IMG/VR virus record: IMGVR_UViG_3300045988_184127
DNA from: a virus
Length of the DNA: 64,000 nt
Strand: one strand, 5' to 3'
Within the stretch, counting starts at the first letter, position 1, and each line of letters opens with the position of its first letter. Of the stretch, positions 3,850 to 46,007 are shown piece after piece. Made by a program: the position numbers and the translations under genes. The notes beneath the pieces were generated by a model. It did no database searches and was not told the DNA's origin. It saw only the letters and a program-made list of their open reading frames with translations.

Positions 3850-3897
3850 ATAAGCACCATAGGGGCACAGAGCCTCTGTGGTGCTTTTTCTTTTTGC
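3850..3897 (+). terminator. rho-independent terminator
   Basis: GC hairpin gcaccat..cacagagCctctgtg..gtgc followed by tttttcttttt. Confidence 0.6.
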
Positions 3898-11793: not shown

Positions 11794-12340
11794 CAAGTAT
11801 CAAGAGCAGACCTGCTGCTTTGTCGGGCACAAAGATATTCCGCCAGGAGAACAGCTTAAAATATTAGTCAGGGTAGAGCATCGGCTCATTCCACTCATTC
11901 AGCAGGGGGTCACCTATTTTGGCATCGGCGGTTCCTTAGGCTTCGATACCCTCATGGCAGACATGTTAATTTCCTTAAAAGCTGCGCATCCACGGATTCG
12001 GATTATTGAGGTTTTGCCATTTGAGGGATACCGTTCTAAATGGAGCTTGGAACAGCAGCGGCACGCAGAGAAGATAGACAAACAGGTGGATAAGATTGTC
12101 TATGGGGCGAAAGAGCCAAGCAGGGGAGTATATCTTTTAAGAGACCGGCATTTAGTGGATTGTTCTGCCTATTGCATCTCTTATTGTACTAGAAATACTG
12201 GAGGCACAGCATATACGGTAAAATACGCTCTGGAACATGGCGTAACGGTGTATAACGCTTCCAGTTTCGACGTGAGCGCCTTGCTTCAGGCTCAGCCGCT
12301 TGGGAAGAACGAACAGGTAGTGTCTTCGCACAAAATATGA
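11786..12340 (+). CDS. SLOG-superfamily protein (DUF1273/YpsA-like)
   Basis: CCFVGHKD...GIGGSLGFD...TGGTAYTVKYA pattern resembles YpsA/DprA-like SLOG fold; overlaps upstream stop. Confidence 0.45.
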   Translation: MNSKYQEQTCCFVGHKDIPPGEQLKILVRVEHRLIPLIQQGVTYFGIGGSLGFDTLMADMLISLKAAHPRIRIIEVLPFEGYRSKWSLEQQRHAEKIDKQVDKIVYGAKEPSRGVYLLRDRHLVDCSAYCISYCTRNTGGTAYTVKYALEHGVTVYNASSFDVSALLQAQPLGKNEQVVSSHKI

Positions 12341-21080: not shown

Positions 21081-21200
21081 AGACAACATGAAAAGAGGGT
21101 GACTCGAAAGAGCCATCCTTTTTTCTGTTGTGACGCAAACGAAAAGTTCATGGTAGCCATCCAATTTGGGTGACTGTCTTTTTTGCATGTTAAGGCTTTG

Positions 21201-21228
21201 TTGCTGAATTGTGCGAATTGAAGATAAT
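21201..21228 (+). promoter_or_regulatory. conserved-module promoter P2
   Basis: TTGCTG-16 nt (aattGTGCGAATTGaa)-GATAAT then TAAAAAC. Confidence 0.55.
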
Positions 21229-21282
21229 TAAAAACAAAAGATGCTTTGTATCAAATCGATTGAAACCGAAGAGGTGAAGTTA

Positions 21283-22086
21283 ATGCTCGGCGTGAGTTTG
21301 ATTATCATAGCAGCGGCTATAGTCTACATGGTCGAAACCTATATCAGCACCTATTACACTATCGAATACATGCACGGAACATCGCTGTTCCTTATCCTCC
21401 TTGCGAAATATGGCACGCCAGTCCTGTTCCTGCTGCTCTGCGCCTACATTGCATATCGCAAATTCCTCAAAAAGCAGAAAGCTGCGGCTTCTGCTGCATC
21501 TGAACGGCCTACAAGCAAAGAAGAGCTGTATACCAACAAAATTCAAACGGCAGTAAAGACAAAAAGCGTCTTCTCAGAGCAGGCTGACCAAATGCTGTAT
21601 CAGGTACGGCGCTTCGGGCAAAAAATGGCCGTTGCCTACAGCATGACCCAGGATAGCAAGACATCCGGGGAACAAGCCAAGTGCCTAACGTTATTGGAAT
21701 CCGCAGAACGTATCTTCTATGACCGACTGGATGACGCGATTCGCTCGGCTTCAATGTTTGATGAAACGGAATACAAGGCTTTCTGTCAAGGCTCTATCTC
21801 GTTTGGAAACAAAGAAGAAGCGCAGAAAAAGAAAGAAATCTACAATGGTATCGTAAGTACCGTGGATAAGGTAGTTTATGACAATGAGCGCTTAATCCTC
21901 CGATTGGATTCTTTAGCATACGCTCTGAACCAACGTTCTGCCCAGAATCCGTGGGATACAGAGGTTGTGCTCGCAATGTCAAAGCTCGATGCTGTCATTA
22001 ACAAGACGACGCAGGATATTGAACAGGATGAAGATATCAGTCGTGAGGCTATGAAACGATATAACAACTTGAAAGGAGAAATTTAA
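21283..22086 (+). CDS. membrane-anchored hypothetical protein
   Basis: Start at MLGVSLIIIAAAIVYM with GAAGAGGTGAAG RBS; two N-terminal TM helices. Confidence 0.45.
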   Translation: MLGVSLIIIAAAIVYMVETYISTYYTIEYMHGTSLFLILLAKYGTPVLFLLLCAYIAYRKFLKKQKAAASAASERPTSKEELYTNKIQTAVKTKSVFSEQADQMLYQVRRFGQKMAVAYSMTQDSKTSGEQAKCLTLLESAERIFYDRLDDAIRSASMFDETEYKAFCQGSISFGNKEEAQKKKEIYNGIVSTVDKVVYDNERLILRLDSLAYALNQRSAQNPWDTEVVLAMSKLDAVINKTTQDIEQDEDISREAMKRYNNLKGEI

Positions 22087-22087
22087 C

Positions 22088-23782
22088 GTGACAAAAAAGA
22101 ACATTTTCCCTGTGGTTGCAACCATTGCTGTGGTAGGCGTTGTTCTCGGCGTGTTTTCGACGACTGTGCTGCGCGACTCGAATGTCAGCATCAGCACGAT
22201 GACTTCCGAGCAGGCATATGCCAACTTGAGCAGCAAGATGAAGCGCATCGGCGTGCAGGAGGTCAAGGTCAATCCTCAGCAGCTGGATGTCTCTGAATTC
22301 CTTGATGCAAAGGATGAACTGCCCGACATTGAATCCTCCTACCCATTCGTGGTCGTAGGAAACGGAGATGTGAACATCGAAATCTTTTCCTCTGGCGAGA
22401 AAGCAGCAGAGTCCGGCTCAGATTCTTTCCTGACCGAAATGGCAAAGAAGTTCAACGCCCAGCACAACAAGACTTCCGGAGACAAGACTATGAGTGTCTC
22501 CCTGCGCTCCATTCCGTCCGGTACGGCGGCTGAGTACATCTCGACGGGAAAGTATCAGCCCGAGTGCTATACCCCCTCAAATACGCTCTTTGGCGAGCTG
22601 GTGAAGAACGAGGGCGTAGAATTGACCGTTGAGGCTGACCGTCTGGTCGGCAATGTGGCGGGTATTCTCGTATCAAAGAAGACAGGGGATATGCTTCGCT
22701 CTGAATACGGTGAAGCTTCTGTTTCTTCCGTTCTGAACGCAACCATCGATGGCAAACTCATGATGGGATACTCGAACCCCTACACAAGTGCTACGGGTCT
22801 TAATTTTCTGCTTGAGGCTCTTGCGAGCAGCGGCAGCGATACGATTGTCGATACGGCTGCTGTTGAGAATTTCCAGAAATTTCAAGCGAACGTCCCTCTC
22901 GTATCCTTCACGACCCAGCAGATGGTCCAGTCGGCAGACAAGGGCATCGTGGACGGCGTTGTCATGGAGTATCAGTCTTATCAGAATGACCCGACCTTAC
23001 AGCGCAACTACGAGTTCATCCCGTTCGGTGTACGGCACGATAATCCTCTGTATTCCATCGGGAATGTCTCTGCGGAGAAGAAGGAAGTTATTGCTGCCTT
23101 CGTTTCCTTCTGCGCTCAGAACCAGGCAGAGGCGACCAAGGACGGATTCAATGGTCTTGACGACTATGCTTATACAGGCAAGGCATACGACGGCAACACC
23201 ATCGCACAGGCTCAGAGTGTCTGGAAAGAAGAGAAGGATTCCGGTATTCCTATTGTGGCAGAGTTCGTTGTCGATACTTCCGGCTCAATGCGCGGCGAAC
23301 CCCTGAATGCCCTGAAAACCGCGATGATAAACACCATCCAGTATATCAATGACGACAACTATATCGGCATCATTGGCTTTGATTCAGATGTCAGGGAATA
23401 CCTGCCCATTGACCAGTTCTCTCTGACCCAGAAAACTCTGTATAAGGGTGCCGTGAACTCCCTCGATGCGAACGGCAGCACCGCAATGTACAACGGTCTT
23501 TGCGTTGCTATGGACCGCATCTACCAGAAATCTCAGGAACTGGGTGGGAATTGCACGCCCATCATCTTTGTGCTCACGGACGGTGACAACAATACCGGAT
23601 ATGGATTCTCCGATACGAAGAACATCATTGCCGGTATGGATATCCCCATTTACACCATCAGCTACAACTACGCAGCGGATAGTCTTTCGGAGCTCGCTTC
23701 CATCAACGAAGCGGCAGCTATCGTCGGCAACAGCGAGGATATCACCTACAAGCTCCGCAACCTGTTTAACGCAGAGATGTAA
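22088..23782 (+). CDS. membrane-anchored von Willebrand factor type A (vWA) domain protein
   Basis: GTG start after AAGGAG RBS; N-terminal TM; C-terminal MIDAS motif VVDTSGSMRGEP...NGSTAMYNGL...TDGDNN. Confidence 0.7.
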   Translation: MTKKNIFPVVATIAVVGVVLGVFSTTVLRDSNVSISTMTSEQAYANLSSKMKRIGVQEVKVNPQQLDVSEFLDAKDELPDIESSYPFVVVGNGDVNIEIFSSGEKAAESGSDSFLTEMAKKFNAQHNKTSGDKTMSVSLRSIPSGTAAEYISTGKYQPECYTPSNTLFGELVKNEGVELTVEADRLVGNVAGILVSKKTGDMLRSEYGEASVSSVLNATIDGKLMMGYSNPYTSATGLNFLLEALASSGSDTIVDTAAVENFQKFQANVPLVSFTTQQMVQSADKGIVDGVVMEYQSYQNDPTLQRNYEFIPFGVRHDNPLYSIGNVSAEKKEVIAAFVSFCAQNQAEATKDGFNGLDDYAYTGKAYDGNTIAQAQSVWKEEKDSGIPIVAEFVVDTSGSMRGEPLNALKTAMINTIQYINDDNYIGIIGFDSDVREYLPIDQFSLTQKTLYKGAVNSLDANGSTAMYNGLCVAMDRIYQKSQELGGNCTPIIFVLTDGDNNTGYGFSDTKNIIAGMDIPIYTISYNYAADSLSELASINEAAAIVGNSEDITYKLRNLFNAEM

Positions 23783-25778: not shown

Positions 25779-27377
25779 ATGGCACGAAGGAAAGCAAACG
25801 ACTTGGAAAATCAGATGTCGCTCATGGACATGATGGCATCGGAAAGCCCCGAATACACCGAGGAAGGTCCGGAAGAACTCTTGGACCCCGGCGAGGACAT
25901 GGGGGACAGTGAAGGGCAGACGGATAAGCCATTCAAACTCGTGGCGAACAAGACCACGAAGGGAAAGGCGAGCATCTCCACGCAGGCGCTGAGTGTTGTG
26001 AAGGCGATATATGCTGATACGGTCGAAACGAATTGGGAAGAGTTGTTTGACGGGTTCGACAGACTCTATGCTATCACTTTTTCGTCCGGAATCGAGTTCG
26101 TGAATAAGGTCATCAACAAGTTCTCGTATGCGGAAGTCGTGTTCGGATGCGAGAAAATCATCGCCACCGACATCGCTGCCATCATGTCGGTGCAAATCGA
26201 CAGCGTGCAGCAGCTCGCTAAGTCTAAGTCGGCAGGAAACCTTGCGAACCGCCTCGATGACGGGTCCTTACAACTGTATGTATCGCGGGACACGAAATCG
26301 CACGAGAAAATCTTCATCTTGGAGAGCGCTGACCGTAAGCGGGTCCGAGTCATCACTGGCAGTGCGAATATGTCGGCATCGGCGTTTTGCGGCATCCAGC
26401 GAGAGAATATCGTTTGCTTCGATGACGAGGCGGCATTTTCGCATTATAAGGCTCTGTTCGAGACCTTCAAGGAGACCTGCTCCGACAACGTTTCGTATAA
26501 GGCAGTCGTGAACACCATGAATCAGGAAGATTATCTGAAAGAGAACATCAAAGAAGTGCCCGTCTTCCAATCCATTGAAAAGCAGAAGCTTATCTTTTTG
26601 GAACAGGCGCAACCTGAGGACGAGGTAGAATACGAGATAGTCGCCGATGTCAAGAAGATGCAGGAGCTCGTCAAGCCGATTATGCCTAAGATGCCGGTAC
26701 AGGCGAATCGTATTGTGGTGGCAGCGGAACCGATGCGCGTTTTTACAAAAAGGTATACAGAAGTTCGTCGTGTGGCGGCTGAGGCAGTTAAGCAGCTTCC
26801 GAAACTGCATATCGACTATGATGCCGGGACCATGACCTTCAACGACGAGAATATCGACCTCAATCCGAATCTCAGCGAGGTGGCAAAGAACATCAAGAGC
26901 ATCCAAAAGTTCTTCTCAGGCATGGACTACTTTTACGGCGATGTCGAGCAAGCTAAAAAAGACTACTTTAAGTACATGACCTGGTATCTGGCTACTCCGT
27001 TCATGGCATATCTACGGTATTTTGCATCGAGGAACAACTACGATACCAAGCTGTTCCCGATGTATGGCGTTATATACGGCGACTCAAATGGCGGCAAGAC
27101 GACCTTTATCAAGTTCCTTGTCAAACTCATGTGCGGGGAGACCGTAAAGATGAACACAACGGAGGATTTTACAGCCACAAGAATCGATGGTCTCAAACGA
27201 GTTTGCGAGGGACTGCCGCTGAATATCGACGACCTCGCCAAGACCGTTCCTTCCGAGTTGAGAATAAAGCAATCGTGCTTGTCCTTTGCAACATCGATAC
27301 CAACAAAAATCATTTCTTTTTACCTCCGGCGTTTTATTTTACAGTGCTGCTTAGAGCCACACCTCTTTGCTATGTAA
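25779..27377 (+). CDS. PLD-like (HKD motif) nuclease domain + C-terminal P-loop NTPase protein, apparently C-terminally truncated
   Basis: SHEKIFILESADRKRVRVITGSANMS resembles HxK..D..GSxN phospholipase-D nuclease motif; YGDSNGGKTTFIKFL Walker A and LPLNIDDL Walker B ~90 aa before stop (SF3/VirE-like geometry but too short). Confidence 0.45.
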   Translation: MARRKANDLENQMSLMDMMASESPEYTEEGPEELLDPGEDMGDSEGQTDKPFKLVANKTTKGKASISTQALSVVKAIYADTVETNWEELFDGFDRLYAITFSSGIEFVNKVINKFSYAEVVFGCEKIIATDIAAIMSVQIDSVQQLAKSKSAGNLANRLDDGSLQLYVSRDTKSHEKIFILESADRKRVRVITGSANMSASAFCGIQRENIVCFDDEAAFSHYKALFETFKETCSDNVSYKAVVNTMNQEDYLKENIKEVPVFQSIEKQKLIFLEQAQPEDEVEYEIVADVKKMQELVKPIMPKMPVQANRIVVAAEPMRVFTKRYTEVRRVAAEAVKQLPKLHIDYDAGTMTFNDENIDLNPNLSEVAKNIKSIQKFFSGMDYFYGDVEQAKKDYFKYMTWYLATPFMAYLRYFASRNNYDTKLFPMYGVIYGDSNGGKTTFIKFLVKLMCGETVKMNTTEDFTATRIDGLKRVCEGLPLNIDDLAKTVPSELRIKQSCLSFATSIPTKIISFYLRRFILQCCLEPHLFAM

Positions 27378-27379
27378 CC

Positions 27380-27571
27380 TCGTTCTATATAAACCGTCTG
27401 GCGGTATCTAACTGATTAACACTAAAAACAAAGAGCCGTGGTTGGAGCCTTTCCGAAACCGTCTTGCGGTAGGAGGTTTAAACCAATCCACAGCACCTTG
27501 TCTATTGTAGCATTTTGTCCTTGGAGAGGGACTTTAATAACTACTACTTTATAATACGAGGAGTATCTTGC
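27380..27571 (+). ncRNA. candidate omega-RNA region for IscB
   Basis: ~190-nt non-coding stretch immediately upstream of iscB containing imperfect repeats accgtctggcggta / accgtcttgcggta; omega-RNAs are known to lie 5-prime of iscB. Confidence 0.3.
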
Positions 27572-28924
27572 ATGAGCACTTGCGTTTGTGTTCTCAGCAA
27601 CAGTGGTGAACGCTTAATGCCTACCATCCGTCTTGGCAAGGTACGCCGACTCTTGAAAGACGGAAAAGCAAAAATCGTTAAGCATCATCCTTTTACTATT
27701 CAACTGCTGTATGACAGCAAAACGAACACACAACCCATCGAAATCTGCGAAGACGTGGGCTACAACTACATCGGCATCAGCGTAAAAAGCGAATCCCACG
27801 AATATGTGTCTGCCCAGTATGATACATTACAGGATGAGAAAGCCTGCCACGACAGTTGTCGTAAGTTGCGCCGAACCCGCAGAAATAGACTGCGCTACCG
27901 TAAACCGCGCTTCGATAACCGCAAGCGCGGCGAAGGTTGGCTTGCTCCTTCTTTGAGGCATAAGAAAGAACTCAATGTCAACGTTGTCAAGATGTATTGT
28001 GCAGTAATGCCCATTACTCATGCAACGGTTGAGGTTGGTTCTTTTGATACGATGCTTGTAAAAGCAATTCAGGAGGGAAAAGCCATTCCTGAGGGAGCAG
28101 ACTACCAGAAAGGTCCCCGCTACAACTTGGCAACTTCGCGTGAGGCAGTGTTCTACCGTGATAATTACACCTGCCAAGTTTGTGGACGCAAAGTTGCGGA
28201 TGGTGCCATTTTACATATGCACCACATGTTCTACTGGAAAGGAAGACACGGCGACAGCCTGAACGAACTTCTAACGGTATGCGAAAAGTGCCATACACCT
28301 GCCAATCACCAAAAAAGCGGTAAGCTTTATGGCTTCGGAGAAAATGTAAAGTTTGCCGACCTTTCCGGTGCGGCTTTTATGAACACCGTTAGGTGGCAAA
28401 TTGTCAATGAACTCTACGCTGCTTTTGGAAAAGATTTTGTCACCATCACTTATGGCGCAATGACAAAAGAAAAGCGCATTGCGCTTCAACTTGAGAAAAC
28501 CCACAGCAATGATGCGTATGCAATGGGCGAGTTTCATCCAAACTGCCGCTGTACGTTTGAACATTATGAAAAGGTAAGGCGTAATAATCGCATCCTTGAA
28601 AAGTTTTATGATTCTCGCTACATTGACATTCGTACAGGAGAAATAGCTACTGGAAAAGAACTCTTCAACGGTAGAATTAACCGTAACCACAAAAAGGATT
28701 CGGAAAATTTGCACAGATACCGTGGCAAGAGGACATACGCAGGGCATCGCGCTCTATTACGCAAAAAGGTAAACCTTAATCCGGGTGATTTAGTCTCTCT
28801 CAACGGAGAAGTTCTCGTTGTGCATAGCACTCATACCAATAAAAAGGGTGCTGTAAATGTAGAATTCAAAACACCCGGAAAAGCGGTCAAAAATCTGCAA
28901 GCCTTAAAAAACTTAAAATTGTAA
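27572..28924 (+). CDS. iscB: IscB OMEGA RNA-guided nuclease (PLMP-RuvC-bridge helix-HNH-RuvC-TID)
   Basis: N-terminal SGERLMPTIRLGKVRRLLKDGKAKIVKHHPFTIQL (PLMP domain), ICEDVGYNYIGISV (RuvC-I), RKLRRTRRNRLRYRKPRFDNRKRGEGWLAPS (Arg-rich bridge helix), CQVCG...LHMHHM...CEKCH (HNH), HSNDAYAMG (RuvC-III). Confidence 0.8.
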   Translation: MSTCVCVLSNSGERLMPTIRLGKVRRLLKDGKAKIVKHHPFTIQLLYDSKTNTQPIEICEDVGYNYIGISVKSESHEYVSAQYDTLQDEKACHDSCRKLRRTRRNRLRYRKPRFDNRKRGEGWLAPSLRHKKELNVNVVKMYCAVMPITHATVEVGSFDTMLVKAIQEGKAIPEGADYQKGPRYNLATSREAVFYRDNYTCQVCGRKVADGAILHMHHMFYWKGRHGDSLNELLTVCEKCHTPANHQKSGKLYGFGENVKFADLSGAAFMNTVRWQIVNELYAAFGKDFVTITYGAMTKEKRIALQLEKTHSNDAYAMGEFHPNCRCTFEHYEKVRRNNRILEKFYDSRYIDIRTGEIATGKELFNGRINRNHKKDSENLHRYRGKRTYAGHRALLRKKVNLNPGDLVSLNGEVLVVHSTHTNKKGAVNVEFKTPGKAVKNLQALKNLKL

Positions 28925-36051: not shown

Positions 36052-36504
36052 ATGATTCGATTCAGAAAAGATACCCCTCGCTACTGGTTTATGAGTAACT
36101 ATTATTCTTGCGAATTTGTGATGAATGGGATTCGTTACAAGAATGCCGAAGCAGCGTTTCAGAGCCACAAGGTTCCGCTGGAAGAGCGCAAACAATTTTC
36201 AGACATGCCTCCGGCAACGGCTAAGCATTTTGGCCGTCATGTGGCTTTCCCTGCCAACTGGGACGAAACCCGGGACGATGTAATGCGCCGCGTGGTGATG
36301 GCTAAATTCGAACAGAATAAAGACCTCAAGCAGCGTCTCCTCGAAACGGGAACGCAGCCAATCGAGGAAGATACCACCAGTTGGCACGATAACTACTGGG
36401 GAAACTGCCATTGCCCGAAATGCCGGAACATCCCGGGTCAGAACCGGCTTGGGATTATTCTGATGGAAACGAGGGACAAGCTAAAAAAACAAACGAGTAA
36501 ATAA
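36052..36504 (+). CDS. NADAR-domain protein (YbiA-like, DUF1768; ADP-ribose/NAD-processing hydrolase family)
   Basis: FSNYY..C.F..NG..Y...E..FQ..K......RK.F.......AK..GR......W.......M...V.AKF.QN..L...LL.TG...IEE....D.YWG pattern of NADAR domain. Confidence 0.7.
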   Translation: MIRFRKDTPRYWFMSNYYSCEFVMNGIRYKNAEAAFQSHKVPLEERKQFSDMPPATAKHFGRHVAFPANWDETRDDVMRRVVMAKFEQNKDLKQRLLETGTQPIEEDTTSWHDNYWGNCHCPKCRNIPGQNRLGIILMETRDKLKKQTSK

Positions 36505-36535
36505 TATTTGCGAGTCATTTCCTTTTTTAAGACAA

Positions 36536-36572
36536 AAGGCTGCCGCCCATCACGGGTAGCAGCCTTCTTTTT
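36536..36572. terminator. bidirectional rho-independent terminator
   Basis: aaggctgccgcccatcacgggtagcagcctt + ctttttttg between convergent genes. Confidence 0.65.
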
Positions 36573-36576
36573 TTGT

Positions 36577-37029
36577 TTAGTGGGTGTCGTGGCACACATG
36601 CTCGAAATCGACGAGCAGCTCATTTGCTGCCTTTTGCACACATGCTATGGCCGGTTCATCCTTGACTTTTTCAGGTAAAAGGATAAGGCACGGACGGTTA
36701 ATATCAGTTGAGCTGCTATAGTGGCAGGAGAGCAACTCTTCTCCAAATTCGTGATTAAGGGCGGAGGCAAGACATTTACCGAGCAAAGCACAATCCTCAT
36801 CTTTCGCCAAAAGCCTATCCGCCTCATCGTAGTTAATGCGGCCGTTATCGAGACATATACGGTCAAGAAATGCACGAACAGAAGCAGATGCGCTCATGGC
36901 ATCTATAGTCTGACGATGATTCTCAAGAAAAATGCAAAATATCGGCTTTTCGATTTCATCCAAGTAAAAGCCAAGGCCGGTAATACGGGTATTGGTATCG
37001 GTTTGTGTCATAGGAAACACCTCATCCAT
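36577..37029 (-). CDS. hypothetical protein
   Basis: 150 aa ORF on minus strand, co-oriented with next gene. Confidence 0.4.
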   Translation of the reverse strand: MDEVFPMTQTDTNTRITGLGFYLDEIEKPIFCIFLENHRQTIDAMSASASVRAFLDRICLDNGRINYDEADRLLAKDEDCALLGKCLASALNHEFGEELLSCHYSSSTDINRPCLILLPEKVKDEPAIACVQKAANELLVDFEHVCHDTH

Positions 37030-37065
37030 TATGGCAGCGAATCACCTTGCCGCATTCAGAACAAC

Positions 37066-38952
37066 TCACTGAACAACTTCGCCAAGGTCATTTGCGTATT
37101 TCGGGTCACACATCATGAAATAGTTGACGGGGCCGTACTCCAGACCGAGCTCCTGCGCGTATGCCTTGATAGCTTCCAGAACGTCCTCTCTCTTGAGGCC
37201 AAACTTGGAATGCAGACGGGCAAACTCTTTGTCAGAGACAGAAACGCAAGAGCAATTTTCTGCATCGGTTTCTTTGCTGCCCAGCATCCCGTCAAAGATG
37301 TCCTGCCCTGCACAGAGAATCGTCTCATTGTTCATCGCATAGGCGATAACGGAAGCCTTACAGTCAAAGTCGCTGTTTTCCACAAGGAAATCCTCAGGGC
37401 GGCCGTGACGTTCAACAACGTTTTCATAGATGTCCCGGAGTTCGATAGGAGCAGAAGGAGCGGTCAGAGCTGCTTTATGAAGGCGCATGAATTCCACAAA
37501 CTTTTCATTCGAGAGGGTATCGGTATAAAAGCCGATGCCGGAAACGCGAACCTTCACTTCGCTGGCAAAGTAATCGTCAATTTTGGAAACGATTTTCTGC
37601 TGGACCCGCTTGTATGCTTCCTGAACATTGGAAGCCGTGTAAAATACCGGGAACTTCATGATGTCGATTCCCTCCGGCAGACTCGCGTCATAGGCCGCAT
37701 CAATGCCGCCCCGCAGCGCCGGAACTGCGTCATGCAGCTCTTTCACAGAAGAAATGTATCCGGTAATGTACAGCTCATCGTTTTTGCTGTAATGCCCGAT
37801 AAGTCCCACATAGAGGGTCTGCATCAGCATCCGCTTGAAGCTGAACCAACAAAGACGAATAGGTAGAATGACATTAGCAGCCGTACCTTCCGCACGATAG
37901 GTGCCGGGGGCAGAGACCTTTTCCAGCAGAATCTGGTCATTCTTGTCGCCGTATTTTTCCTTGAAAAGAGCTTGAAGAATTTCAGTGGACGAAAGAGGAG
38001 TGGACATTGGAATCGTTTCATTCAGAAAAGAGAGGAATGCATCCACATTGTCTTTCTGCCATGCGTCATCAGACATGCTTGCACGCTGCATAGAGAGCTT
38101 GTCTTTCCCGTCGTCAGGCAAGGGCTCATACCCGCAGGCGATACGAAGCTCGTTCTCCGTGACAGCATCCGTTGCGCTTGCAATTTTCTTGATGGTATTT
38201 TCGGTCGGCTGAGCTTTTGCGTTGCCATTCACGAGGCTGCTGATATACCCACGAGTCAGTCCTGCCTGAAACGCAAACTTACCCTGTGTTCGGGTTCCGA
38301 TGGCTTTTTTGACCAGCGATGCCAGCCTTTGAAAGTCGGGCTCTTTGGGAAAGGTGGCCTCCGTATCCTTATTGCTGTTCTTTTCAAGTACCGACTTGTC
38401 CCAACCGGTGACAAGAGAATACCCAATATCCTTCAAGGATTGATAGGCAACCCCGTTCTGGTCAAGAGCCGGGGAGTATGTACCGCTGTTATCTTCCAGC
38501 TGCTCTACTGCGTCACGCACCATCCTTGCTTCGTTCATCAGGATGACGTCCGGGGCTTCAAGCCGGGCAAGACTCTTGTACCGATTATTGAGGCGCTCGA
38601 CTCGTGCGGCCAATGCAGTGATGTTGGCAACTTGGTCTTCCGTTGCATGGGCAGAGATATCTGCACCAAGTTCAAAATGGTTCAGTGCAGGAATATCCAC
38701 GCCTTTGCTCTTGGCGAATTCCACAATGGCTTCCGCGCCATAGAAACGCTTCTCATGGGCTGCGACAACTTTCGTTATCGTGTCGGCCGAGTTGTCCAGC
38801 TCAAGCACTTCACCTTTTCCGGCACCCTCGACATAACACCTGGCGTTGGTGAGAAAGCCTTTCAAAAAATCAGCATCCACATCCAGCTTCTTAGCGATGC
38901 CGGGCAGCTGCTTATAGAAAATCACGGGCGTGGCGAGGTTAACAGAAATCAT
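37066..38952 (-). CDS. large hypothetical protein with central XRE-like helix-turn-helix
   Basis: 628 aa; segment QRLASLVKKAIGTRTQGKFAFQAGLTRGYISSLVNG resembles HTH_XRE DNA-binding motif. Confidence 0.45.
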   Translation of the reverse strand: MISVNLATPVIFYKQLPGIAKKLDVDADFLKGFLTNARCYVEGAGKGEVLELDNSADTITKVVAAHEKRFYGAEAIVEFAKSKGVDIPALNHFELGADISAHATEDQVANITALAARVERLNNRYKSLARLEAPDVILMNEARMVRDAVEQLEDNSGTYSPALDQNGVAYQSLKDIGYSLVTGWDKSVLEKNSNKDTEATFPKEPDFQRLASLVKKAIGTRTQGKFAFQAGLTRGYISSLVNGNAKAQPTENTIKKIASATDAVTENELRIACGYEPLPDDGKDKLSMQRASMSDDAWQKDNVDAFLSFLNETIPMSTPLSSTEILQALFKEKYGDKNDQILLEKVSAPGTYRAEGTAANVILPIRLCWFSFKRMLMQTLYVGLIGHYSKNDELYITGYISSVKELHDAVPALRGGIDAAYDASLPEGIDIMKFPVFYTASNVQEAYKRVQQKIVSKIDDYFASEVKVRVSGIGFYTDTLSNEKFVEFMRLHKAALTAPSAPIELRDIYENVVERHGRPEDFLVENSDFDCKASVIAYAMNNETILCAGQDIFDGMLGSKETDAENCSCVSVSDKEFARLHSKFGLKREDVLEAIKAYAQELGLEYGPVNYFMMCDPKYANDLGEVVQ

Positions 38953-39166
38953 GGTGTACTCCTTTCAGATGTGTCATTTGCTGTATAATAATGTCATCTT
39001 CTGTAATTATAATAGCACATCTCACGCCAAAAAGCAAGCATGAATTTACAATAAATGACAATAAAACACACAAGATGACATATTTGAGCAAAGCAATTGA
39101 TTCTTGAGCTTTCCGGCTTGGTGACGGAACAAGCTCTATGCGCCTTGTCTTTACCACAGTTTTGCC

Positions 39167-39194
39167 TTGTGCATCCGTGCAAATTAAATACAAT
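39167..39194 (+). promoter_or_regulatory. conserved-module promoter P6 (diverged spacer)
   Basis: TTGTGC-16 nt (atCCGTGCAAATTAaa)-TACAAT then TAAAGATG. Confidence 0.5.
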
Positions 39195-39243
39195 TAAAGA
39201 TGTCGAAAGATAAAGCACAACACACAAAAAAGGAAATTTCACT

Positions 39244-39564
39244 ATGAACACCAGTATTTTGAAACTCAAAGCCACTGTAATCCGCCCCAAAGACGATGAT
39301 GAACTTGACGGCCTTGCCGCATCCATCAGCTTTCCCGTCGAATGCGATGATGAAGCAATTGGCGAGGCTCTGGGCGACCATGACCTGATGGCCTATGTTG
39401 TCGGAGAGCTACACGACCTCGTTGTCCGAATGCGTCCCGAATGGCTGGATAATGAGGATACTAGCCTGACCATCAAGGCATTCCTGGACGAAGCTGAGTA
39501 CCAGACGTTCAAGGGCCTTGTCGCGATGAAAGAAGACAGCTACACCTTTGTTATTGAGGGCTAA
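39244..39564 (+). CDS. small acidic hypothetical protein
   Basis: 106 aa, AAAAAGGAAA RBS. Confidence 0.4.
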   Translation: MNTSILKLKATVIRPKDDDELDGLAASISFPVECDDEAIGEALGDHDLMAYVVGELHDLVVRMRPEWLDNEDTSLTIKAFLDEAEYQTFKGLVAMKEDSYTFVIEG

Positions 39565-39599
39565 ACACCACAGAGCAAAAAGCAAACCAAGCCTGCAGT

Positions 39600-39685
39600 A
39601 AAATGCGGGTAGGACTTTTTTGTTTGCGTAGCTGCATCCTTTTGTCCGCAGAAACCGTAGGTGCCAGGATGCGTAGCTGCCGATG
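39600..39685. repeat. second cluster of GCGTAGCTGC x2 / ACCGTAGG motifs
   Basis: gtttGCGTAGCTGCatcc...gaaACCGTAGGtgccaggatGCGTAGCTGCcg; same cores as 1741-1985 cluster. Confidence 0.55.
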
Positions 39686-39689
39686 TGTC

Positions 39690-39717
39690 TTGACCCGGCG
39701 TGCGAATCTCATACAAT
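39690..39717 (+). promoter_or_regulatory. conserved-module promoter P7
   Basis: TTGACC-16 nt (cggcGTGCGAATCTca)-TACAAT. Confidence 0.55.
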
Positions 39718-39723
39718 CAAATC

Positions 39724-39800
39724 TGTACGAAAGATACTATGCACACAATAGAATTCACACTAAGCTGCTCAGTGGCCTTATGGCTATTGGGTAGCTTTTT
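39724..39800 (+). ncRNA. candidate short transcript/leader from P7 ending in weak terminator
   Basis: ~80 nt containing AGATACTA and GAATTCACA motifs shared with P12/P13 leaders; ends gggtagctttttctttt just before P8. Confidence 0.3.
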
Positions 39801-39823
39801 CTTTTGTGCGAACTGCGTACAAT
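39795..39823 (+). promoter_or_regulatory. conserved-module promoter P8 (weak -35)
   Basis: cttttt-17 nt (cttTTGTGCGAACTGcg)-TACAAT, 24 nt upstream of ATG 39847. Confidence 0.45.
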
Positions 39824-39846
39824 AAAAATCAGACGGAGGAACAACT

Positions 39847-40254
39847 ATGAAAAAATTTATTGGGACTGCTCTGGTGCTGTGCTGCCTGGCTCTACCTTTG
39901 GCTGGCTGTGAGGACGCAATCAGCACTGTGACAAGTACCACAATGTCTGAACTCGAAGATATCCCGAACCAGATATTGGCCACACCGGAAAGTGCTGAAA
40001 CGGAACCGGAATACAATTACATTCATTTTCGTTACGACAACATCTGGACTGTATCTGCCCTCGTGAACTACGAAATCGTAGACAACGGCCAAAACATAAA
40101 ATTTGAAATCAACGATAGTCGTTATCGAGACAAGGTTTTTTATACCAGCATGTCGAATGTAGAGCTCGTATACCGAGACGATAGCGTTGATTATCGCACG
40201 GGCTATGCGGTTTATCCGGGGGATGCCTCGAAGCTTGGAAAAGGTGGTAAGTGA
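39847..40254 (+). CDS. lipoprotein
   Basis: MKKFIGTALVLCCLALPLAGCED lipobox; 135 aa. Confidence 0.55.
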   Translation: MKKFIGTALVLCCLALPLAGCEDAISTVTSTTMSELEDIPNQILATPESAETEPEYNYIHFRYDNIWTVSALVNYEIVDNGQNIKFEINDSRYRDKVFYTSMSNVELVYRDDSVDYRTGYAVYPGDASKLGKGGK

Positions 40255-40255
40255 G

Positions 40256-40732
40256 ATGAGCGTAAATTTTGTCGATGGCAATATTTTTTCACGACTTTCT
40301 GCGAGTAAGCCAACTTACATTTGCCAGCAAGTAAATTGCAAAGGTGTAATGGGAGCTGGACTTGCCATGCAAATTTGCATCCAATGGCCGGTGGTATATC
40401 GGCGCTATCTGGAGTTTTGCCATGGAAACGACGGCAACAAGCTCGGTACTTATCAGGAGGTTCTGGTAGAACCGAAGCTGTATGTCGTGAATCTGTTCGG
40501 GCAGAATGGTTATAGCCGAGGTGAAAGGCAGACGAATTATGCTGCACTGGCGGCTGCGCTGTTCTCGTTTTTTAGAGACTGCGCTCAAAAGTATCAGGAC
40601 GTAACTATCCGGTTGCCATATGGTTTAGGCTGCGGACTTGCCGGAGGCGACTGGGACACGGTTCTGGACATCATCAGCGATGCAGCAAAAGCCTGGAATC
40701 TGAATGTTGAGATTTGGGAACTCCAGAAATAA
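40256..40732 (+). CDS. macrodomain protein (ADP-ribose binding / hydrolase family)
   Basis: Start at MSVNFVDGNIF (AAGGTGG RBS); ICQQVNCKGVMGAGLAMQI matches macro-domain N..G.GGV..AI core; C-terminal GLGCGLAGGDW. Confidence 0.7.
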   Translation: MSVNFVDGNIFSRLSASKPTYICQQVNCKGVMGAGLAMQICIQWPVVYRRYLEFCHGNDGNKLGTYQEVLVEPKLYVVNLFGQNGYSRGERQTNYAALAAALFSFFRDCAQKYQDVTIRLPYGLGCGLAGGDWDTVLDIISDAAKAWNLNVEIWELQK

Positions 40733-40737
40733 TAGCA

Positions 40738-40790
40738 ATAAGACCTTTACCGAAATTCGGTAAGGGTCTTTCTTTTTTTGTAGGGATGCA
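40738..40790 (+). terminator. rho-independent terminator
   Basis: agacctttaccgaaattcggtaagggtct + ttctttttttg. Confidence 0.65.
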
Positions 40791-40890
40791 AATATGTACA
40801 GATTGCAAACAAATGGCACCTGCCGTTGCAGAAAAAGCACGATAGTGGGATAATATTAGTAAAGAAACAACAACATCATCAGTAAAGTGA

Positions 40891-41910
40891 GTGAAAAAGC
40901 CTATGACAAACGCAGAACTAAAAGCAATCGTCCAGCGTGAGGAATACGATTTCCTGCGCACCAACAAACACTTGGGGAGCAACATTTTATTCCTAACGCT
41001 TAGCGGCAGTCATGCCTACGGAACCAACGTCGAAGGCTCCGATATCGATATACGTGGCGTGGCAGGCTCACCCGAAATCTTAGGGTTTAACCACTTTGAG
41101 CAGGCCATTGACAACCGGACAGATACAGTCATCTACGCTGTGAACAAGTTTGTCAGCTTGCTTGCGCAGGGTAATCCCAACATTATCGAACTTCTTGGCA
41201 ATGACCCGGAGCTATATGTGAACATGACGCCGGAAGGCCAAATGCTGCTTGACAATAGGGAACTGTTCTTGACTCGGCGCATTGCCTACAGCTATGGCGG
41301 CTTTGCAAACGACCAGCTCAGACGTTTGCAGATGGGTTTGCTTCGCAACAGAGTCTCGCCGGAGGCGCTCAAAAACAAATTCGAGAAGAGGAGTCTGGAA
41401 CGGGCGATTACCGGATGGGGCAAGGATGACATTTTTGAAATCTCCATCAGTAAGGATACAGATGAAGAAGGCAAACATCCGCTCCTGATTTCTTGCAGCT
41501 TGAACGATTATCCAGTCACCTCTCTAAAGCCGCTGCTAAAGAGTCTGACTACGACCATCGACCAGTATGAGCAGCCGCAGCATCCGAAAGCGCAAAAGGA
41601 TGCTGCCCACATCAATAAACACGCAATGCACCTTGTAAGACTGTATTACACGGCATTTGACATTCTGGAACAAGGACGCATCATCACCTGTCGAGACAAG
41701 GAACGCGAGGAATTATTAGCCATCCGCAACGGCAAGTACATGTGCGAGGATGGGTCATACGCTCCCGAATTCTTTGAGTTTGTTGATGCGCTTGAAAAGA
41801 AATTTCAGGATGACGTGAGGAAAACCTCTCTTCCTGCTAAGCCTGACTTTGGAAAAATTGAGGAGCTTCTGGTGGAAATCAACAAGGAATATTTGCGGCG
41901 CGTCATGTAA
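40891..41910 (+). CDS. minimal nucleotidyltransferase (Pol-beta superfamily) domain protein
   Basis: LTLSGSHAYGTNVEGSDIDIRGV = GS..x(n)..[DE]hDh NTase signature; 339 aa; track start is GTG, alternative ATG at 40903. Confidence 0.6.
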   Translation: MKKPMTNAELKAIVQREEYDFLRTNKHLGSNILFLTLSGSHAYGTNVEGSDIDIRGVAGSPEILGFNHFEQAIDNRTDTVIYAVNKFVSLLAQGNPNIIELLGNDPELYVNMTPEGQMLLDNRELFLTRRIAYSYGGFANDQLRRLQMGLLRNRVSPEALKNKFEKRSLERAITGWGKDDIFEISISKDTDEEGKHPLLISCSLNDYPVTSLKPLLKSLTTTIDQYEQPQHPKAQKDAAHINKHAMHLVRLYYTAFDILEQGRIITCRDKEREELLAIRNGKYMCEDGSYAPEFFEFVDALEKKFQDDVRKTSLPAKPDFGKIEELLVEINKEYLRRVM

Positions 41911-42434: not shown

Positions 42435-43121
42435 ATGATTGAGCAGAAAGACAGTGAAATTTTGGAGCTCGCGGGGTTTGCAGACCGGAACAGAAAGGCC
42501 AGGGAGGTTCATTCAGAGCCTATTTTCGTACAGGTGAACAGCAAGCTGGCAGCCTACACGATACCAGGAATGCGTTCGGAAGGAACGACCTATGATGTTC
42601 CGACTTACTCGGCACTGAAAGGTGCAATGGATTCCATCTACAAACATGTCGGTATGGAAGCGATTCCGACGGCGGTGTACATTCACTCTCCTATAAAAAA
42701 GACACGTATCCTGCTGCGAAATATTGAGAACATCGAAGGAATGCGCTCCCGCGAATGCTTAACGGATGTTTGCTACACGGTCGTTGTACGAATCGTAAGA
42801 ATGGATAACATGGCTTTAGAAAGCGACCTCACAGTGCAGTACAGGAATTTCTTAGAGTATGCTTCCGACAGCTGTGGGATGGGATATCCGTATCTTGGCG
42901 TGATGGAAACACCCATGTATTTCCATCCTGTAACGGAAGCTGAAATCCTTCCGACGCTGCCCATCACATCTGATTTGTGCAACATGCCTCTGACGCCGGA
43001 TTATACGAACAAATTTGAACCGGATTTGGTTTGCAGGCATCTTCGCATCGAGAATGGTGTCATCGATTTTACGAAGGGGGAGTATTTTCGCTGCTATGGA
43101 TATTCTGAATGCGCTGGTTAA
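42435..43121 (+). CDS. cas5c: Cas5c (Cas5d) type I-C Cascade subunit / pre-crRNA endoribonuclease
   Basis: FVQVNSKLAAYTIPGMRSEGTTYDVPTYSALKGAMDSIY matches Cas5d N-terminal signature (..yAlF..P......Y.vPTysALKG..esIY); 228 aa; overlaps cas8c start. Confidence 0.8.
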   Translation: MIEQKDSEILELAGFADRNRKAREVHSEPIFVQVNSKLAAYTIPGMRSEGTTYDVPTYSALKGAMDSIYKHVGMEAIPTAVYIHSPIKKTRILLRNIENIEGMRSRECLTDVCYTVVVRIVRMDNMALESDLTVQYRNFLEYASDSCGMGYPYLGVMETPMYFHPVTEAEILPTLPITSDLCNMPLTPDYTNKFEPDLVCRHLRIENGVIDFTKGEYFRCYGYSECAG

Positions 43122-45042
43122 GCACTATGATGCGATGGCAGCAGCTGGAAATGCAACGCCTTTCGGCTGGACACACAAGTTTGCTCAATATGCCGTCGAA
43201 CTAAACGATGACGGAGAAATCGATAGGATTTTCGCTCTCGGTGATTTATCCGATAAAAAGAACAAAGGCGAGGAATTCAAGATGCCAACACGCAGGCCAC
43301 GGTCTGGCAAGCTGCCGATTCCGTATGTGTTCTGTGATGATGCGGAACATCTTCTCGGCAAAGTCGGTGAAGCGAGCAATCTTGTTCGATACACTATGAT
43401 GCGCGACGCAGTCTTTATGCTGCGTGACCTGTTGGGACATTCTAAAGCCTTAGATGTCGTCTACAAGTTCTACGAAACGTGGGACCCAGAAAAGGCGCTT
43501 GACAATAAATGTGTCAGCGACGTAATGGAGGCGAAAGGCCAGGAAAAGAAAACCTTTATCCTGTTCTACAATGGCGTTCCAGTTTTTGATGATGAGACAT
43601 TTCGCAAAAGCTATGCGGCGATTGTCAATAAATATGGGGAAATGCCGATTGATACACTCAAGGGCGGTGAAATTGCTCTGTTGCCGGAACCTATCAAGAT
43701 TCGAAGCATGATAAGCGGCAATATCGGGTTTAAGGCTCGCTTGTTTCGAGCCATCACGGCATGGGGAAACAAAAAGAATGGCCCTGTCACAAACACTCTT
43801 TTGTCCAACAACAAAGCAAACACCGAGTATTTCGGACGTCAGCAGGGCAACGCCATCCCCATCACAATGCAAGATGAACATAAGATTTACGAAGCGGCTA
43901 CAGATTTGCTCGGCTCCAAACATCGGTTTCCGGTTCCGGCCACTTCACAGTCTCTTTATTCAAAGAATCAAATTATCTGGTCGGATGATATGCCAACAAA
44001 GCTGGAAGACGCGGTCATTGACCTATGCTGTTGCCGCAGTGATAAAGCTAAAACTATCTCTCAGGCAAATGAATCAGGTTCTGAAACCACTATCAGAATC
44101 CTTGAAAAAACAAAACTCTATCAGGGACGAATCACGGTTCTTTCGGACATTGAAAAGAACTTAGTCGTCAACGTCTGGAATCTTGATATGAATAATAAGG
44201 GATGTTCTGCATCCAGCTTTACGCAGATGACGCTTGACGAGCTGCTTGGAAACTTTGCCAAGCATTACACTGACATGGAAATTGACCGAAGCCAGACTTG
44301 CCGAGATGCGGATGGAACCAGCCGAGATTTTGCAAGAGCCATCAACATCTACAACTCACTTTTCGCCAAAAACAGTGATGGAAGCACGAGTTCTTTCAAC
44401 AACGCTCTTTGGAAACAACTGAGTATCAGCATTTATTCCGGAACAAAGTATCCGGAGCAAGTCCTTTCCCTGGCACTGCTTCGGTCCTGCCGTTTGCTTC
44501 AGCAAAATAAGAAAGGCAAAGAAAATCGCATCACGGCGTCTTTGGCCGGTATCACAAAAGCGTTCTTAATTCGCAATTACGGAGAGAATATGACGATGGG
44601 ACTCAACTCAAACAACACCAGCCCTGCTTATATCACAGGACGAATCTTCGCACATATGGAAAGTGCGCAGAGAAAGATTGACCCCAACAACCAAACCACT
44701 TACGCTAAACGGTTCTTTGAGCGAGTTATGATGAACCCGGCCAAAACCATGCCGGAACTTCACAAGAGTTTCCTTCTTTTGAAGAACAAGGCTAAAGCAA
44801 ATGGCATGAGAGGTCTTTATAATTCCAGCGACAAGAAAATTATGGCTCTTATCGATATGCTGGATGGCAACTATCCCGACCATCTATCCGAAAAGCAAAA
44901 AGGTGAATATCTCGTCGGATACTATCAGCAGCGAAGCGCAAACATCAAGGATGCCGAGGAGAAGAAAAACCGGAAAGCCGCCAAAATTGAAACTAATAAT
45001 ACGGATACTGCGACAACCGTTGCAACACAAAAGGAGAAGTAA
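43096..45042 (+). CDS. cas8c: Cas8c (Csd1) type I-C Cascade large subunit
   Basis: N-terminus MDILNALVKHYDAMAAAG...GWTHKF...VELNDDGEI...MPTRRPRSGKLPIPYVFCDDAEHLLG matches Csd1 family pattern (M.L.aL..yYdrl...vP.R..RTsg..p.flcD...Y.LG); ~648 aa; position between cas5c and cas7c. Confidence 0.8.
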   Translation: MDILNALVKHYDAMAAAGNATPFGWTHKFAQYAVELNDDGEIDRIFALGDLSDKKNKGEEFKMPTRRPRSGKLPIPYVFCDDAEHLLGKVGEASNLVRYTMMRDAVFMLRDLLGHSKALDVVYKFYETWDPEKALDNKCVSDVMEAKGQEKKTFILFYNGVPVFDDETFRKSYAAIVNKYGEMPIDTLKGGEIALLPEPIKIRSMISGNIGFKARLFRAITAWGNKKNGPVTNTLLSNNKANTEYFGRQQGNAIPITMQDEHKIYEAATDLLGSKHRFPVPATSQSLYSKNQIIWSDDMPTKLEDAVIDLCCCRSDKAKTISQANESGSETTIRILEKTKLYQGRITVLSDIEKNLVVNVWNLDMNNKGCSASSFTQMTLDELLGNFAKHYTDMEIDRSQTCRDADGTSRDFARAINIYNSLFAKNSDGSTSSFNNALWKQLSISIYSGTKYPEQVLSLALLRSCRLLQQNKKGKENRITASLAGITKAFLIRNYGENMTMGLNSNNTSPAYITGRIFAHMESAQRKIDPNNQTTYAKRFFERVMMNPAKTMPELHKSFLLLKNKAKANGMRGLYNSSDKKIMALIDMLDGNYPDHLSEKQKGEYLVGYYQQRSANIKDAEEKKNRKAAKIETNNTDTATTVATQKEK

Positions 45043-45044
45043 CA

Positions 45045-46007
45045 ATGTCTGAACTCGTTAAGAATCCTATCACCATTGTTCTAGCGTTTGATGCGCAGAA
45101 CTGTAATCCCAATGGGGACCCCGACAACGACAACAACCCGCGTCAGTTTGAGGATGGAATCGGGTACATGTCGTCCGAAAGCATCAAATATAAGATTCGC
45201 AGCTACATCCGTGACAAGGTCTTGTTTGACGGTCTGGAAAAGAACAGCCATGCACTATATTGCAGCCCCGATACTTTTTCCATTGAGCGCAGCGTTAAAG
45301 AGTGCCTGGAGCCTATCATCGGCAAAAAAACCAAAGGCATCCCCGATGACCAGCAGCTGGAGGCTTATAAGGAGCTGTGCCGGTACTACTATGATACTCG
45401 CATGTTTGGGCTTGTGAATACGAGTTATTCCAACTGCAGCCTTCTCAGCCGCATCAAGGGTGCCTGCCAGGTATCTATGCCGATGTCCTATGACCCTATC
45501 GAAATCATCCCGATGACGATTACTCGCTGCTGCGTTGCTTCCGATGCTGAACGCAAAGGCGAAGATAAAGGCGCCAAGAAGGGCGTCAGTATCGACGAAA
45601 GCGACGATGGAGCCGAAAAGAAGACGAAAGACCGCATGATAGGCCGTCGAAGCATTATCAGATATGGGCTGTATCACATGAGCATTCAAATCAACAGTGC
45701 AATGGCACAGCGTAACGGTGTTACGATGGATGACGTTAATTTGTTGATTGATGCGCTGCAGCATATGTTCGAGGAAGATATGAGCTCCAGCAGAGCCCTA
45801 ACGCTGCGTAAGTTGTTTGTCGTTGAACACACCAAACCGATGGGAAATGCTTATCGGGACACCATTGAGCGGGCACTGGCGGCTCGACTGAAGCAACCTA
45901 ATGATGCACCTACATCTTATGAGGATTACGAGGTGACTTATCACCGCGAAATGCTGCCTGATGAGGTCAAGGTGACTGAGTATAATTATAACAGTCAAAG
46001 CGTTTGA
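45045..46007 (+). CDS. cas7c: Cas7c (Csd2) type I-C Cascade backbone subunit
   Basis: ITIVLAFDAQNCNPNGDPDNDNNPRQFEDGIGYMSSESIKYKIRSYIRD = hallmark Csd2/Cas7 N-terminal motif (nsNPNGDP...N.PR.d..tG.g..s..s.KrkiR); 320 aa. Confidence 0.85.
   Translation: MSELVKNPITIVLAFDAQNCNPNGDPDNDNNPRQFEDGIGYMSSESIKYKIRSYIRDKVLFDGLEKNSHALYCSPDTFSIERSVKECLEPIIGKKTKGIPDDQQLEAYKELCRYYYDTRMFGLVNTSYSNCSLLSRIKGACQVSMPMSYDPIEIIPMTITRCCVASDAERKGEDKGAKKGVSIDESDDGAEKKTKDRMIGRRSIIRYGLYHMSIQINSAMAQRNGVTMDDVNLLIDALQHMFEEDMSSSRALTLRKLFVVEHTKPMGNAYRDTIERALAARLKQPNDAPTSYEDYEVTYHREMLPDEVKVTEYNYNSQSV

Follow-up and report, generated by a model that had tools for sequence, protein, structure and literature searches.

Proteins of the NADAR family remove ADP-ribose (ADPr) from guanine (PMC11543638; PMC11125620), and the four subtypes tested (DarT1-linked, sigma70-linked, YbiA, and T4 phage) all hydrolyze guanine-ADPr in vitro (PMC11125620). 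Phage NADARs from several clades neutralize DarTG1 (PMC11257639). The macrodomain protein SCO6735 cleaves ADPr off thymidine and also rescues cells from DarT (PMC9411070), and a phage-encoded DarG2-like antitoxin of chimalliviruses is reported to be a DarTG counter-defence (PMC13309987). Nucleotidyltransferases of the RlaP family, which add one to two nucleoside monophosphates (NMP) to damaged RNA 3' ends (3'-OH), are linked to RNA ligase operons (bioRxiv 10.64898/2025.12.29.696909). The presence of NADAR, macrodomain, and RlaP proteins in large phages, including their co-occurrence, has already been described (PMC7824862; PMC9503650). Here, homologs of these proteins were analyzed in the IMG/VR virus record IMGVR_UViG_3300045988_184127, a DNA stretch of 64,000 nucleotides (hereafter the window) from a phage-like, very large element that is very common in the human gut. 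A sequence-only reading of the window had named four open reading frames (ORFs), coding for a NADAR, a macrodomain protein, a nucleotidyltransferase, and an HD-domain protein; all four were found where it had placed them (Table 1), the last one on the minus strand. The NADAR, the macrodomain, and the RlaP are further examples of a familiar large-phage tool kit, with modest twists on a very prevalent gut element, namely a YbiA-type NADAR and a Gln-type macrodomain of the SCO6735 subclass. With moderate confidence, our analysis points to the NADAR and the macrodomain as two orphan, antitoxin-like ADP-ribosyl hydrolases that would protect the DNA of the element from host DNA-ADP-ribosylating defences of the DarT1 or DarT2 type, with the RlaP acting separately in RNA repair.

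The assignment of the NADAR in the sequence-only reading was borne out by a match to PF08719 over model positions 2–163 of 163 (E = 5e-26, 92.3 bits, cut-off 35.1) and by intact catalytic residues. Its best PHROGs match was phrog_1017 (4e-36), and its best solved match was E. coli YbiA (PDB 2b3w, 1.5e-13), followed by the NADAR of P. nicotianae (PnNADAR, 8bau, 3.5e-9). In the alignment to both structures, E33, K40, and E106 correspond to E43, K50, and E125 of PnNADAR, the catalytic residues of that enzyme (PMC11543638), and all three are invariant in 40 of 40 homologs of 34–59% identity. The third catalytic position is Glu in the YbiA family, His in T4-type phage NADARs, and Asp in DarT1-linked NADARs (PMC11543638); unlike the latter two groups, the NADAR of the window thus carries the YbiA-family signature. 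It resembles the phage orphan NADARs AdfN (= T4 gp30.3) and those of the Bas32/Bas60 type (PMC11257639) in being a stand-alone protein of a mobile element without a detected DarT partner and in keeping the catalytic Glu/Lys pair. As in most phage NADARs, the N-terminal extension that DarG1 carries is missing and the protein begins at the core fold; together with Glu instead of Asp at position 106 and the lack of an adjacent darT1 hit in Pfam and PADLOC, this separates it from DarG1. The NADAR would most likely act on ADP-ribosylated guanine, as produced by enzymes of the DarT1 or ScARP/pierisin type, and strip off the ADPr.

The NADAR gene is the last of a unit that is opened by a DNA helicase gene and has the gene of a 184-amino-acid protein (p184) in between. 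The helicase shares ~50% identity with helicases of Faecalibacterium and Streptococcus phages and accompanies the NADAR in most related loci of sufficient length. No match to p184 was obtained in Pfam, PHROGs, or PADLOC; it is present in all related NADAR-bearing loci but one and varies more than the NADAR (74–100% identity). Judging from the tight gene spacing, the NADAR is co-transcribed with the helicase and belongs to the conserved backbone of the element. This arrangement recalls the LexA-controlled operon of ybiA with dinG (PMC11125620) and would fit a protection of replicating DNA.

The macrodomain protein remained below the threshold of the Pfam Macro model (PF01661; E = 0.028, 14.8 bits, cut-off 22). 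Its identity as a macrodomain, which the sequence-only reading had proposed, holds nonetheless because of its homology to solved structures and because homologs at 42–46% identity, named Appr-1-p processing protein, carry PF01661. In a phmmer search against PDB, it matched SCO6735 (5e3b, 5e-13), 2afc (5e-11), and BT_1257 (2fg1, 7e-11), and more weakly yeast Poa1p (1e-7) and the DarG macrodomain (5m31, 2e-4). Further matches were obtained to the PADLOC model of DarG (E = 3.5e-13, covering only model positions 4–144 of 329) and to phrog_335, which is labelled 'phosphatase' (E = 9e-35). N27, Q83, and G127 correspond to N27, Q85, and G128 of SCO6735, whose mutation abolishes or strongly reduces activity (PMC9411070). 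Among 20 homologs, Q83 and the GCGLAGG loop (G125–G131) are invariant and N27 is nearly so. Like SCO6735 and BT_1257, the protein thus keeps the Asn, the Gln in place of the catalytic Lys, and the phosphate loop, and its mobile loop has basic residues (R88, R91). It differs from SCO6735 in that this mobile loop is two residues shorter, in being encoded on a mobile element and not on a chromosome, and in being partnered by a lipoprotein gene. Despite its matches to DarG, the antitoxin of DarTG2, it has no C-terminal DarT-binding domain, no adjacent darT hit, and the mentioned replacement of the catalytic Lys by Gln. As a member of this SCO6735/DarG-like group it would most likely strip ADPr from thymidine, the product of DarT2-type enzymes.

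The stop codon of the lipoprotein gene (lipo135) abuts the start codon of the macrodomain gene, and lipo135 has been kept beside the macrodomain in a divergent element family (38–50% identity). The small acidic protein p106 co-occurs with both in related loci, including the divergent family (40–56% identity). In this pairing, a predicted secreted lipoprotein travels with a cytoplasmic hydrolase.

The nucleotidyltransferase, described as 'minimal' in the sequence-only reading, turned out to be a two-domain RlaP of 335–339 amino acids, in which the nucleotidyltransferase domain is followed by a helical C-terminal domain. The ORF matched PF10127 (E = 1e-20, 74.7 bits, cut-off 23) and phrog_388 (E = 3e-52, model positions 18–335 of 351), and its score with NTP_transf_2 (17.5 bits) was under the cut-off of 21. 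G38-S39, D51-x-D53, and D78 are conserved in comparison to phage homologs at 38% identity; no sequence match to solved structures was obtained. Minimal nucleotidyltransferases (MNT) are NTP_transf_2 proteins of ~100–150 amino acids with a HEPN partner, and an assignment to the MNT of HEPN-MNT pairs was rejected on the basis of the protein length, the sub-threshold NTP_transf_2 score, and the finding of no HEPN neighbor. The full-length match, the GS motif with three Asp, and the helical C-terminal domain are shared with PfRlaP/PaRlaP and T4 NrdC.11, and the protein is predicted from these features to add one to two NMP to RNA 3'-OH ends. Unlike the RlaP of RNA-ligase operons, it has no RNA ligase or RtcA/RtcB neighbor in the window: the domain scans, which took in ~55 ORFs and the small ORFs only in part, detected no RNA ligase, RtcA/B, Pnkp, or Hen1. 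RlaP is without a demonstrated link to ADPr. It forms an independent cassette and would most likely put back nucleotides where host ribotoxins have trimmed RNA 3' ends; it is best regarded as a counter-defence neighbor with a separate anti-ribotoxin function, outside any ADPr pathway.

The closest annotated phage homolog of this RlaP (38% identity, labelled hypothetical) is found in Clostridioides phage AR1086-1 (OR397124.1, 98818–105612; locus L166). It is located 5 kb downstream of kptA, the gene of an RNA 2'-phosphotransferase, with amidoligase-like and pentapeptide/DUF7666 genes in between. The ORFs adjoining it were scanned and rejected as RNA ligases.

The NADAR, the macrodomain, and the nucleotidyltransferase had been regarded as one gene set in the sequence-only reading, a view that had to be abandoned. 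The three are neighbors in an accessory region but do not form one operon or module, because they belong to separate transcription units and each comes and goes on its own among related elements. Nor are they contiguous, as the NADAR and macrodomain genes are separated by 3.7 kb with two genes on the opposite strand, and a terminator-like hairpin lies between the macrodomain and RlaP genes. Across 49 related loci the backbone consisting of the helicase, p184, the NADAR, and a 628-amino-acid helix-turn-helix protein (HTH628) is largely constant, and the stretch between the HTH628 gene and a UvrD-like helicase gene forms a hot spot. Its contents are either p106, the lipoprotein, and the macrodomain, to which RlaP, a Cas3-less type I-C Cascade, or both may be added, or methylases and GmrSD instead. 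The macrodomain and RlaP genes are neighbors in most related loci, but the former occurs without the latter in L009, L029, and L032 and the latter without the former in L021; the two are separately gained and lost hot-spot cassettes. The divergent element family has a macrodomain of 53–60% identity and preserves the synteny of p106, the lipoprotein, the macrodomain, and the UvrD-like helicase. Of 37 unrelated NADAR loci, three have a macrodomain homolog within 10 kb and one has an RlaP within 10 kb. In one of these three, on an unrelated 238-kb IMG/VR contig (L056, 3119–4072), homologs of the macrodomain (31% identity) and the NADAR (46%) abut, with the stop at 3655 and the start at 3656, and a two-gene eraser operon therefore exists elsewhere. 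The 352-amino-acid ORF upstream of this pair was considered as an RlaP and rejected. Further alternatives at the hot spot (window positions 36577–41910; loci L001–L049 and L087–L162) are EcoRI-like methylase, GmrSD-HNH, DUF4379, RRXRR, and DUF4238 genes.

Neither DarT nor any other toxin was detected by Pfam and PADLOC in the flanking ORFs p184, p144, HTH628, p106, and lipo135, and the presence of a DarTG operon was rejected accordingly. Of the two roles that the sequence-only reading had offered, counter-defence agrees with the removal of ADPr from DNA bases by the nearest characterized relatives, whereas the antitoxin half of a module is left without a detected toxin partner. Public assemblies list the exact NADAR sequence in 4048 index blocks, with contigs of up to ~270 kb, and the IMG/VR catalogue includes related contigs as long as 389 kb. 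Homologs were found in 458 (NADAR), 418 (macrodomain), and 421 (RlaP) phage records. A megablast search with the 30–50-kb part of the window against INPHARED phages and PLSDB plasmids gave zero matches, and all NADAR relatives in GTDB representative genomes were distant (≤45% identity), with none close. As regards a phage or plasmid nature of the element, the scanned window ORFs yielded neither structural nor conjugation genes.

In the fourth protein, the sequence-only reading had seen a weak motif reminiscent of ADP-ribosyltransferases (ARTs). An AlphaFold model of this three-domain protein (ART-HD; predicted local distance difference test score 90.7, 17-sequence homolog alignment) predicts an ART fold, and not a non-ART fold, for the middle domain; structure comparison was the only search that detected it. 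In the model, R204 ends strand 1 (199–206), S218-W-T220 forms strand 2 (218–220), and E260-K-E262 leads into strand 5 (262–264). Since 50 representatives of 21–40% identity all share the R, the S, and the second E, with the first E nearly invariant, the motif is real and not due to chance, although the conserved Ser is S218 of 'SWT' and not the last S of 'TTS'. Apart from R, G, two S, one A, and the second E in ExE, no column of the ART domain is invariant in these 50 diverse members. Pfam ART models matched neither the window protein nor the 50 family members, and single-sequence and profile searches with the ART domain against PDB gave no match. A profile of the domain retrieved 4700 cluster representatives, 627 of them at E ≤ 1e-10, most with a length of 440–500 amino acids and the domain at ~180–280. 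Strand 1 carries the R, strand 2 the S-x-T, and E-x-E precedes strand 5, positions shared with R-S-E ARTs like T4 Alt/ModA/ModB, C3/VIP2, and ScARP/Scabin, from which the domain differs by its core of ~85 amino acids, a distance of just 14 residues from the R motif to the S motif, and its invisibility to Pfam.

ART-HD is also a member of the HD phosphohydrolase superfamily. The window protein itself scored below the threshold of the Pfam HD model (PF01966, E = 0.12), which was passed by its full-length homologs P0120 and P0105 (42–48% identity) and by 19 of the 50 family members, and the metal-binding motifs H321, H355-D356, and D425/D430 are invariant. The family profile matched the HD hydrolase 2pq7 (5e-5) and the HD-GYP protein 4mcw (1e-3) in PDB, and Foldseek with the full-length model saw only the HD domain, with PPX-C, phosphodiesterase, and HD-GYP folds at a probability of ~1. 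SidE enzymes combine an mART with a phosphodiesterase domain, and ART-HD is similar in its fusion of an ART to a metal-dependent phosphohydrolase; its domain order is N-terminal domain, ART, HD, and the sign of homology to the SidE phosphodiesterase is a faint hit (E = 0.088) in one homolog only. Divergent ART-HD homologs have no conserved partner and no macrodomain or NADAR in their neighborhoods. Judging from the model and the residue conservation, ART-HD is probably a separate, active ADP-ribosyltransferase effector of the element, encoded ~17 kb upstream. No name, Pfam ART model, or published description of the ART-HD fusion was found in the literature searched; it represents a widespread unnamed family and is the less ordinary part of the window, most worth follow-up.

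Several points weigh against a role of the two hydrolases in DNA protection. YbiA also serves riboflavin metabolism as a housekeeping N-glycosidase, SCO6735 acts on Glu/Asp-ADP-ribosylated proteins too, and the macrodomain of the window resembles the ADPr-1''-phosphatase Poa1p. E. coli YbiA and the T4 NADAR gave no rescue from DarT1 in uninfected cells (PMC11125620), and the NADAR of the window is of the YbiA type. Comparative genomics predicts soluble ADPr derivatives as targets of most phage Macro and NADAR proteins (PMC9503650). In favor of DNA protection, the surroundings consist of anti-defence and defence cargo, including the AcrVA2-like gene, the Cas3-less Cascade, and methylases. It is unlikely, but deserves consideration, that the NADAR, the macrodomain, and the YpsA-like SLOG protein degrade soluble NAD-derived molecules of host immunity, such as Thoeris/TIR signals of the cyclic-ADPr type, ADPr-1''-phosphate, or ADPr>p. 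The joint presence of the three genes in the window, the resemblance to Poa1p, the 'phosphatase' label of phrog_335, and published proposals (PMC9503650; PMC7824862) agree with such a function; however, the best matches and the catalytic residues of the macrodomain, with Gln for Lys and a long basic mobile loop, point to the SCO6735 subclass, characterized on DNA (PMC9411070), guanine-ADPr is removed by every NADAR tested so far (PMC11125620), and no Nudix domain or NAD-salvage gene was found in the ~55 window ORFs scanned. We consider distinctly unlikely a role in NAD-dependent repair of RNA after ribotoxin cleavage, in which a KptA-type enzyme would move the RNA 2'-phosphate to NAD, the macrodomain and possibly the NADAR would clear ADPr-phosphate, and RlaP would refill 3' nucleotides before ligation. 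This would connect the activity of RlaP on RNA 3' ends and its link to RNA ligase operons (bioRxiv 10.64898/2025.12.29.696909) with the proposed action of Macro and NADAR proteins together with KptA in RNA repair (PMC9503650; PMC7824862), and it is in line with the adjoining macrodomain and RlaP genes of most related loci and with the vicinity of RlaP and kptA in the C. difficile phage AR1086-1. Yet RNA ligase, KptA, and 2H phosphoesterase were not detected among the scanned ORFs of the window, and the macrodomain and RlaP occur apart in the four loci named above and are separated by the terminator-like hairpin. Moreover, the ART domain of the element has an R-S-E triad, whereas the active site of KptA is R-H-R-R.

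The hydrolases might also serve the element itself as self-immunity or regulatory erasers, with its own ART-HD marking targets of the host or the element, and the NADAR, the macrodomain, or both limiting or reversing these marks on molecules of the element. This appears very unlikely to us, even though the element encodes a probably active R-S-E ART according to model and sequence, the guanine-specific DNA ARTs ScARP and Scabin are R-S-E enzymes, ScARP products are reversed by NADAR, and toxin-antitoxin pairs of an ART and a YbiA-type NADAR exist (YarT-YbiA; PMC11125620): the ART-HD gene stands 17–22 kb from those of the hydrolases and belongs to a different operon on the opposite strand, divergent ART-HD homologs have no macrodomain or NADAR neighbors, and many relatives of the element do without the macrodomain. 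Similarly improbable is a two-step action of ART-HD, in which the ART would ADP-ribosylate a host protein or nucleic-acid base and the HD domain would cleave the ADPr pyrophosphate or process the adduct to yield a phosphoribosyl-type mark, a counterpart on a phage or mobile element to the chemistry of Legionella SidE, while the NADAR and the macrodomain would erase such marks from the DNA or proteins of the element; the family concerned comprises at least 627 clusters at 50% identity. We retain protection from host DNA ADP-ribosylation as the preferred reading.

The remaining genes of the window are listed in Table 1. The YpsA-like SLOG domain class has been linked to NAD and ADPr derivatives, and its co-occurrence with Macro and NADAR domains in phages has been reported. 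From the AcrVA2-like match, the gene upstream of the helicase-NADAR unit may code for an anti-CRISPR protein. The SPFH/flotillin gene and the two genes following it may form a membrane-associated module, and the group of genes around the NYN-domain protein, far from RlaP, may have RNA-processing or end-healing functions. The PLD/NgoFVII-like nuclease has a length of 721 amino acids in relatives, where a Mor-like regulator is found at the position of the nuclease and RRXRR-HNH genes. The Cascade genes occur in a subset of related elements only and are accompanied neither by cas3 nor by cas1/2/4; a search of the whole window for a CRISPR array found none.

Table 1. Features of the window discussed in the text, in order of position (aa, amino acids; nt, nucleotides).
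Feature	Position	Strand	Basis and remarks
DUF6557, calcineurin-like metallophosphoesterase, NYN-domain protein (588 aa)	2229-5802	+	consecutive genes
Transposase-like protein	7767-9503	-	accessory region; phrog_506, 2e-34
Y-family DNA polymerase	10261-11529	+	accessory region; IMS, 3.5e-47
YpsA-like SLOG protein	11786-12340	+	PF06908, 4.4e-14
ART-HD, 465 aa, three domains	17460-18857	-	AlphaFold model, conservation, HD matches
ART-HD, N-terminal domain	~residues 1-185	-	
ART-HD, predicted minimal R-S-E ADP-ribosyltransferase domain	~residues 195-280; nt 18018-18275	-	
ART-HD, HD phosphohydrolase domain	~residues 285-465; nt 17463-18005	-	
SPFH/flotillin (547 aa), 281-aa protein, 564-aa protein with C-terminal VWA domain	19437-23782	+	consecutive genes
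PLD/NgoFVII-like nuclease (532 aa) and RRXRR-HNH protein	25779-28924	+	
AcrVA2-like protein, 295 aa	30431-31318	+	PF26125 in precomputed Pfam hits of identical loci
DEAD/ResIII-type DNA helicase, 731 aa	33276-35471	+	ResIII 1.5e-36, Helicase_C, phrog_16 2e-97; opens unit ending with NADAR
p184, 184 aa	35476-36030	+	gap of 4 nt to helicase and of 21 nt to NADAR
NADAR, 150 aa, YbiA-type core fold, predicted N-glycosidic ADP-ribosyl hydrolase	36052-36504	+	PF08719
p106, acidic protein, 106 aa	39244-39564	+	syntenic partner of macrodomain cassette; no family match (Pfam, PHROGs, PADLOC)
Terminator-like hairpin 5' of lipo135 gene, similar to that at 40740-40770	39762-39797		consensus scan, pattern match only
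lipo135, predicted lipoprotein, 135 aa	39847-40254	+	sequence inspection; signal peptide and lipobox L-A-G-C
Stand-alone macrodomain, 158 aa, predicted ADP-ribosyl hydrolase, ALC1-like/TARG1/DarG class, SCO6735/BT_1257 subclass	40256-40732	+	PDB, PADLOC, and PHROG matches
Terminator-like hairpin between macrodomain and RlaP genes	40740-40770	+	consensus scan, pattern match only; 14-bp stem and T-run
RlaP-family Pol-beta nucleotidyltransferase	40891-41910	+	339 aa from GTG; 335 aa from ATG 40903 (gene callers' start)
Type I-C Cascade: cas5c, cas8c/Csd1, cas7	42435-46007	+	
UvrD-like (GajB-like) helicase, 920 aa	46374-49136	+	after Cascade genes

If the NADAR and the macrodomain erase guanine- and thymine-linked ADPr, respectively, the element would be covered against both DarT classes, which would imply that DNA ADP-ribosylation contributes significantly to the defence of its Firmicutes-like gut host. 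The variable hot spot, which holds the macrodomain, RlaP, and the Cas3-less Cascade, or methylases with GmrSD, is a natural collection of anti-defence cargo genes that can replace one another. The ART-HD family, which is widespread, has a perfectly conserved R-S-E triad, and escapes Pfam, is a well-defined candidate for a new ADP-ribosylation effector. Should its proposed two-step action prove true, one of the most widespread large gut elements would carry a complete ADPr system of writer, processor, and erasers.

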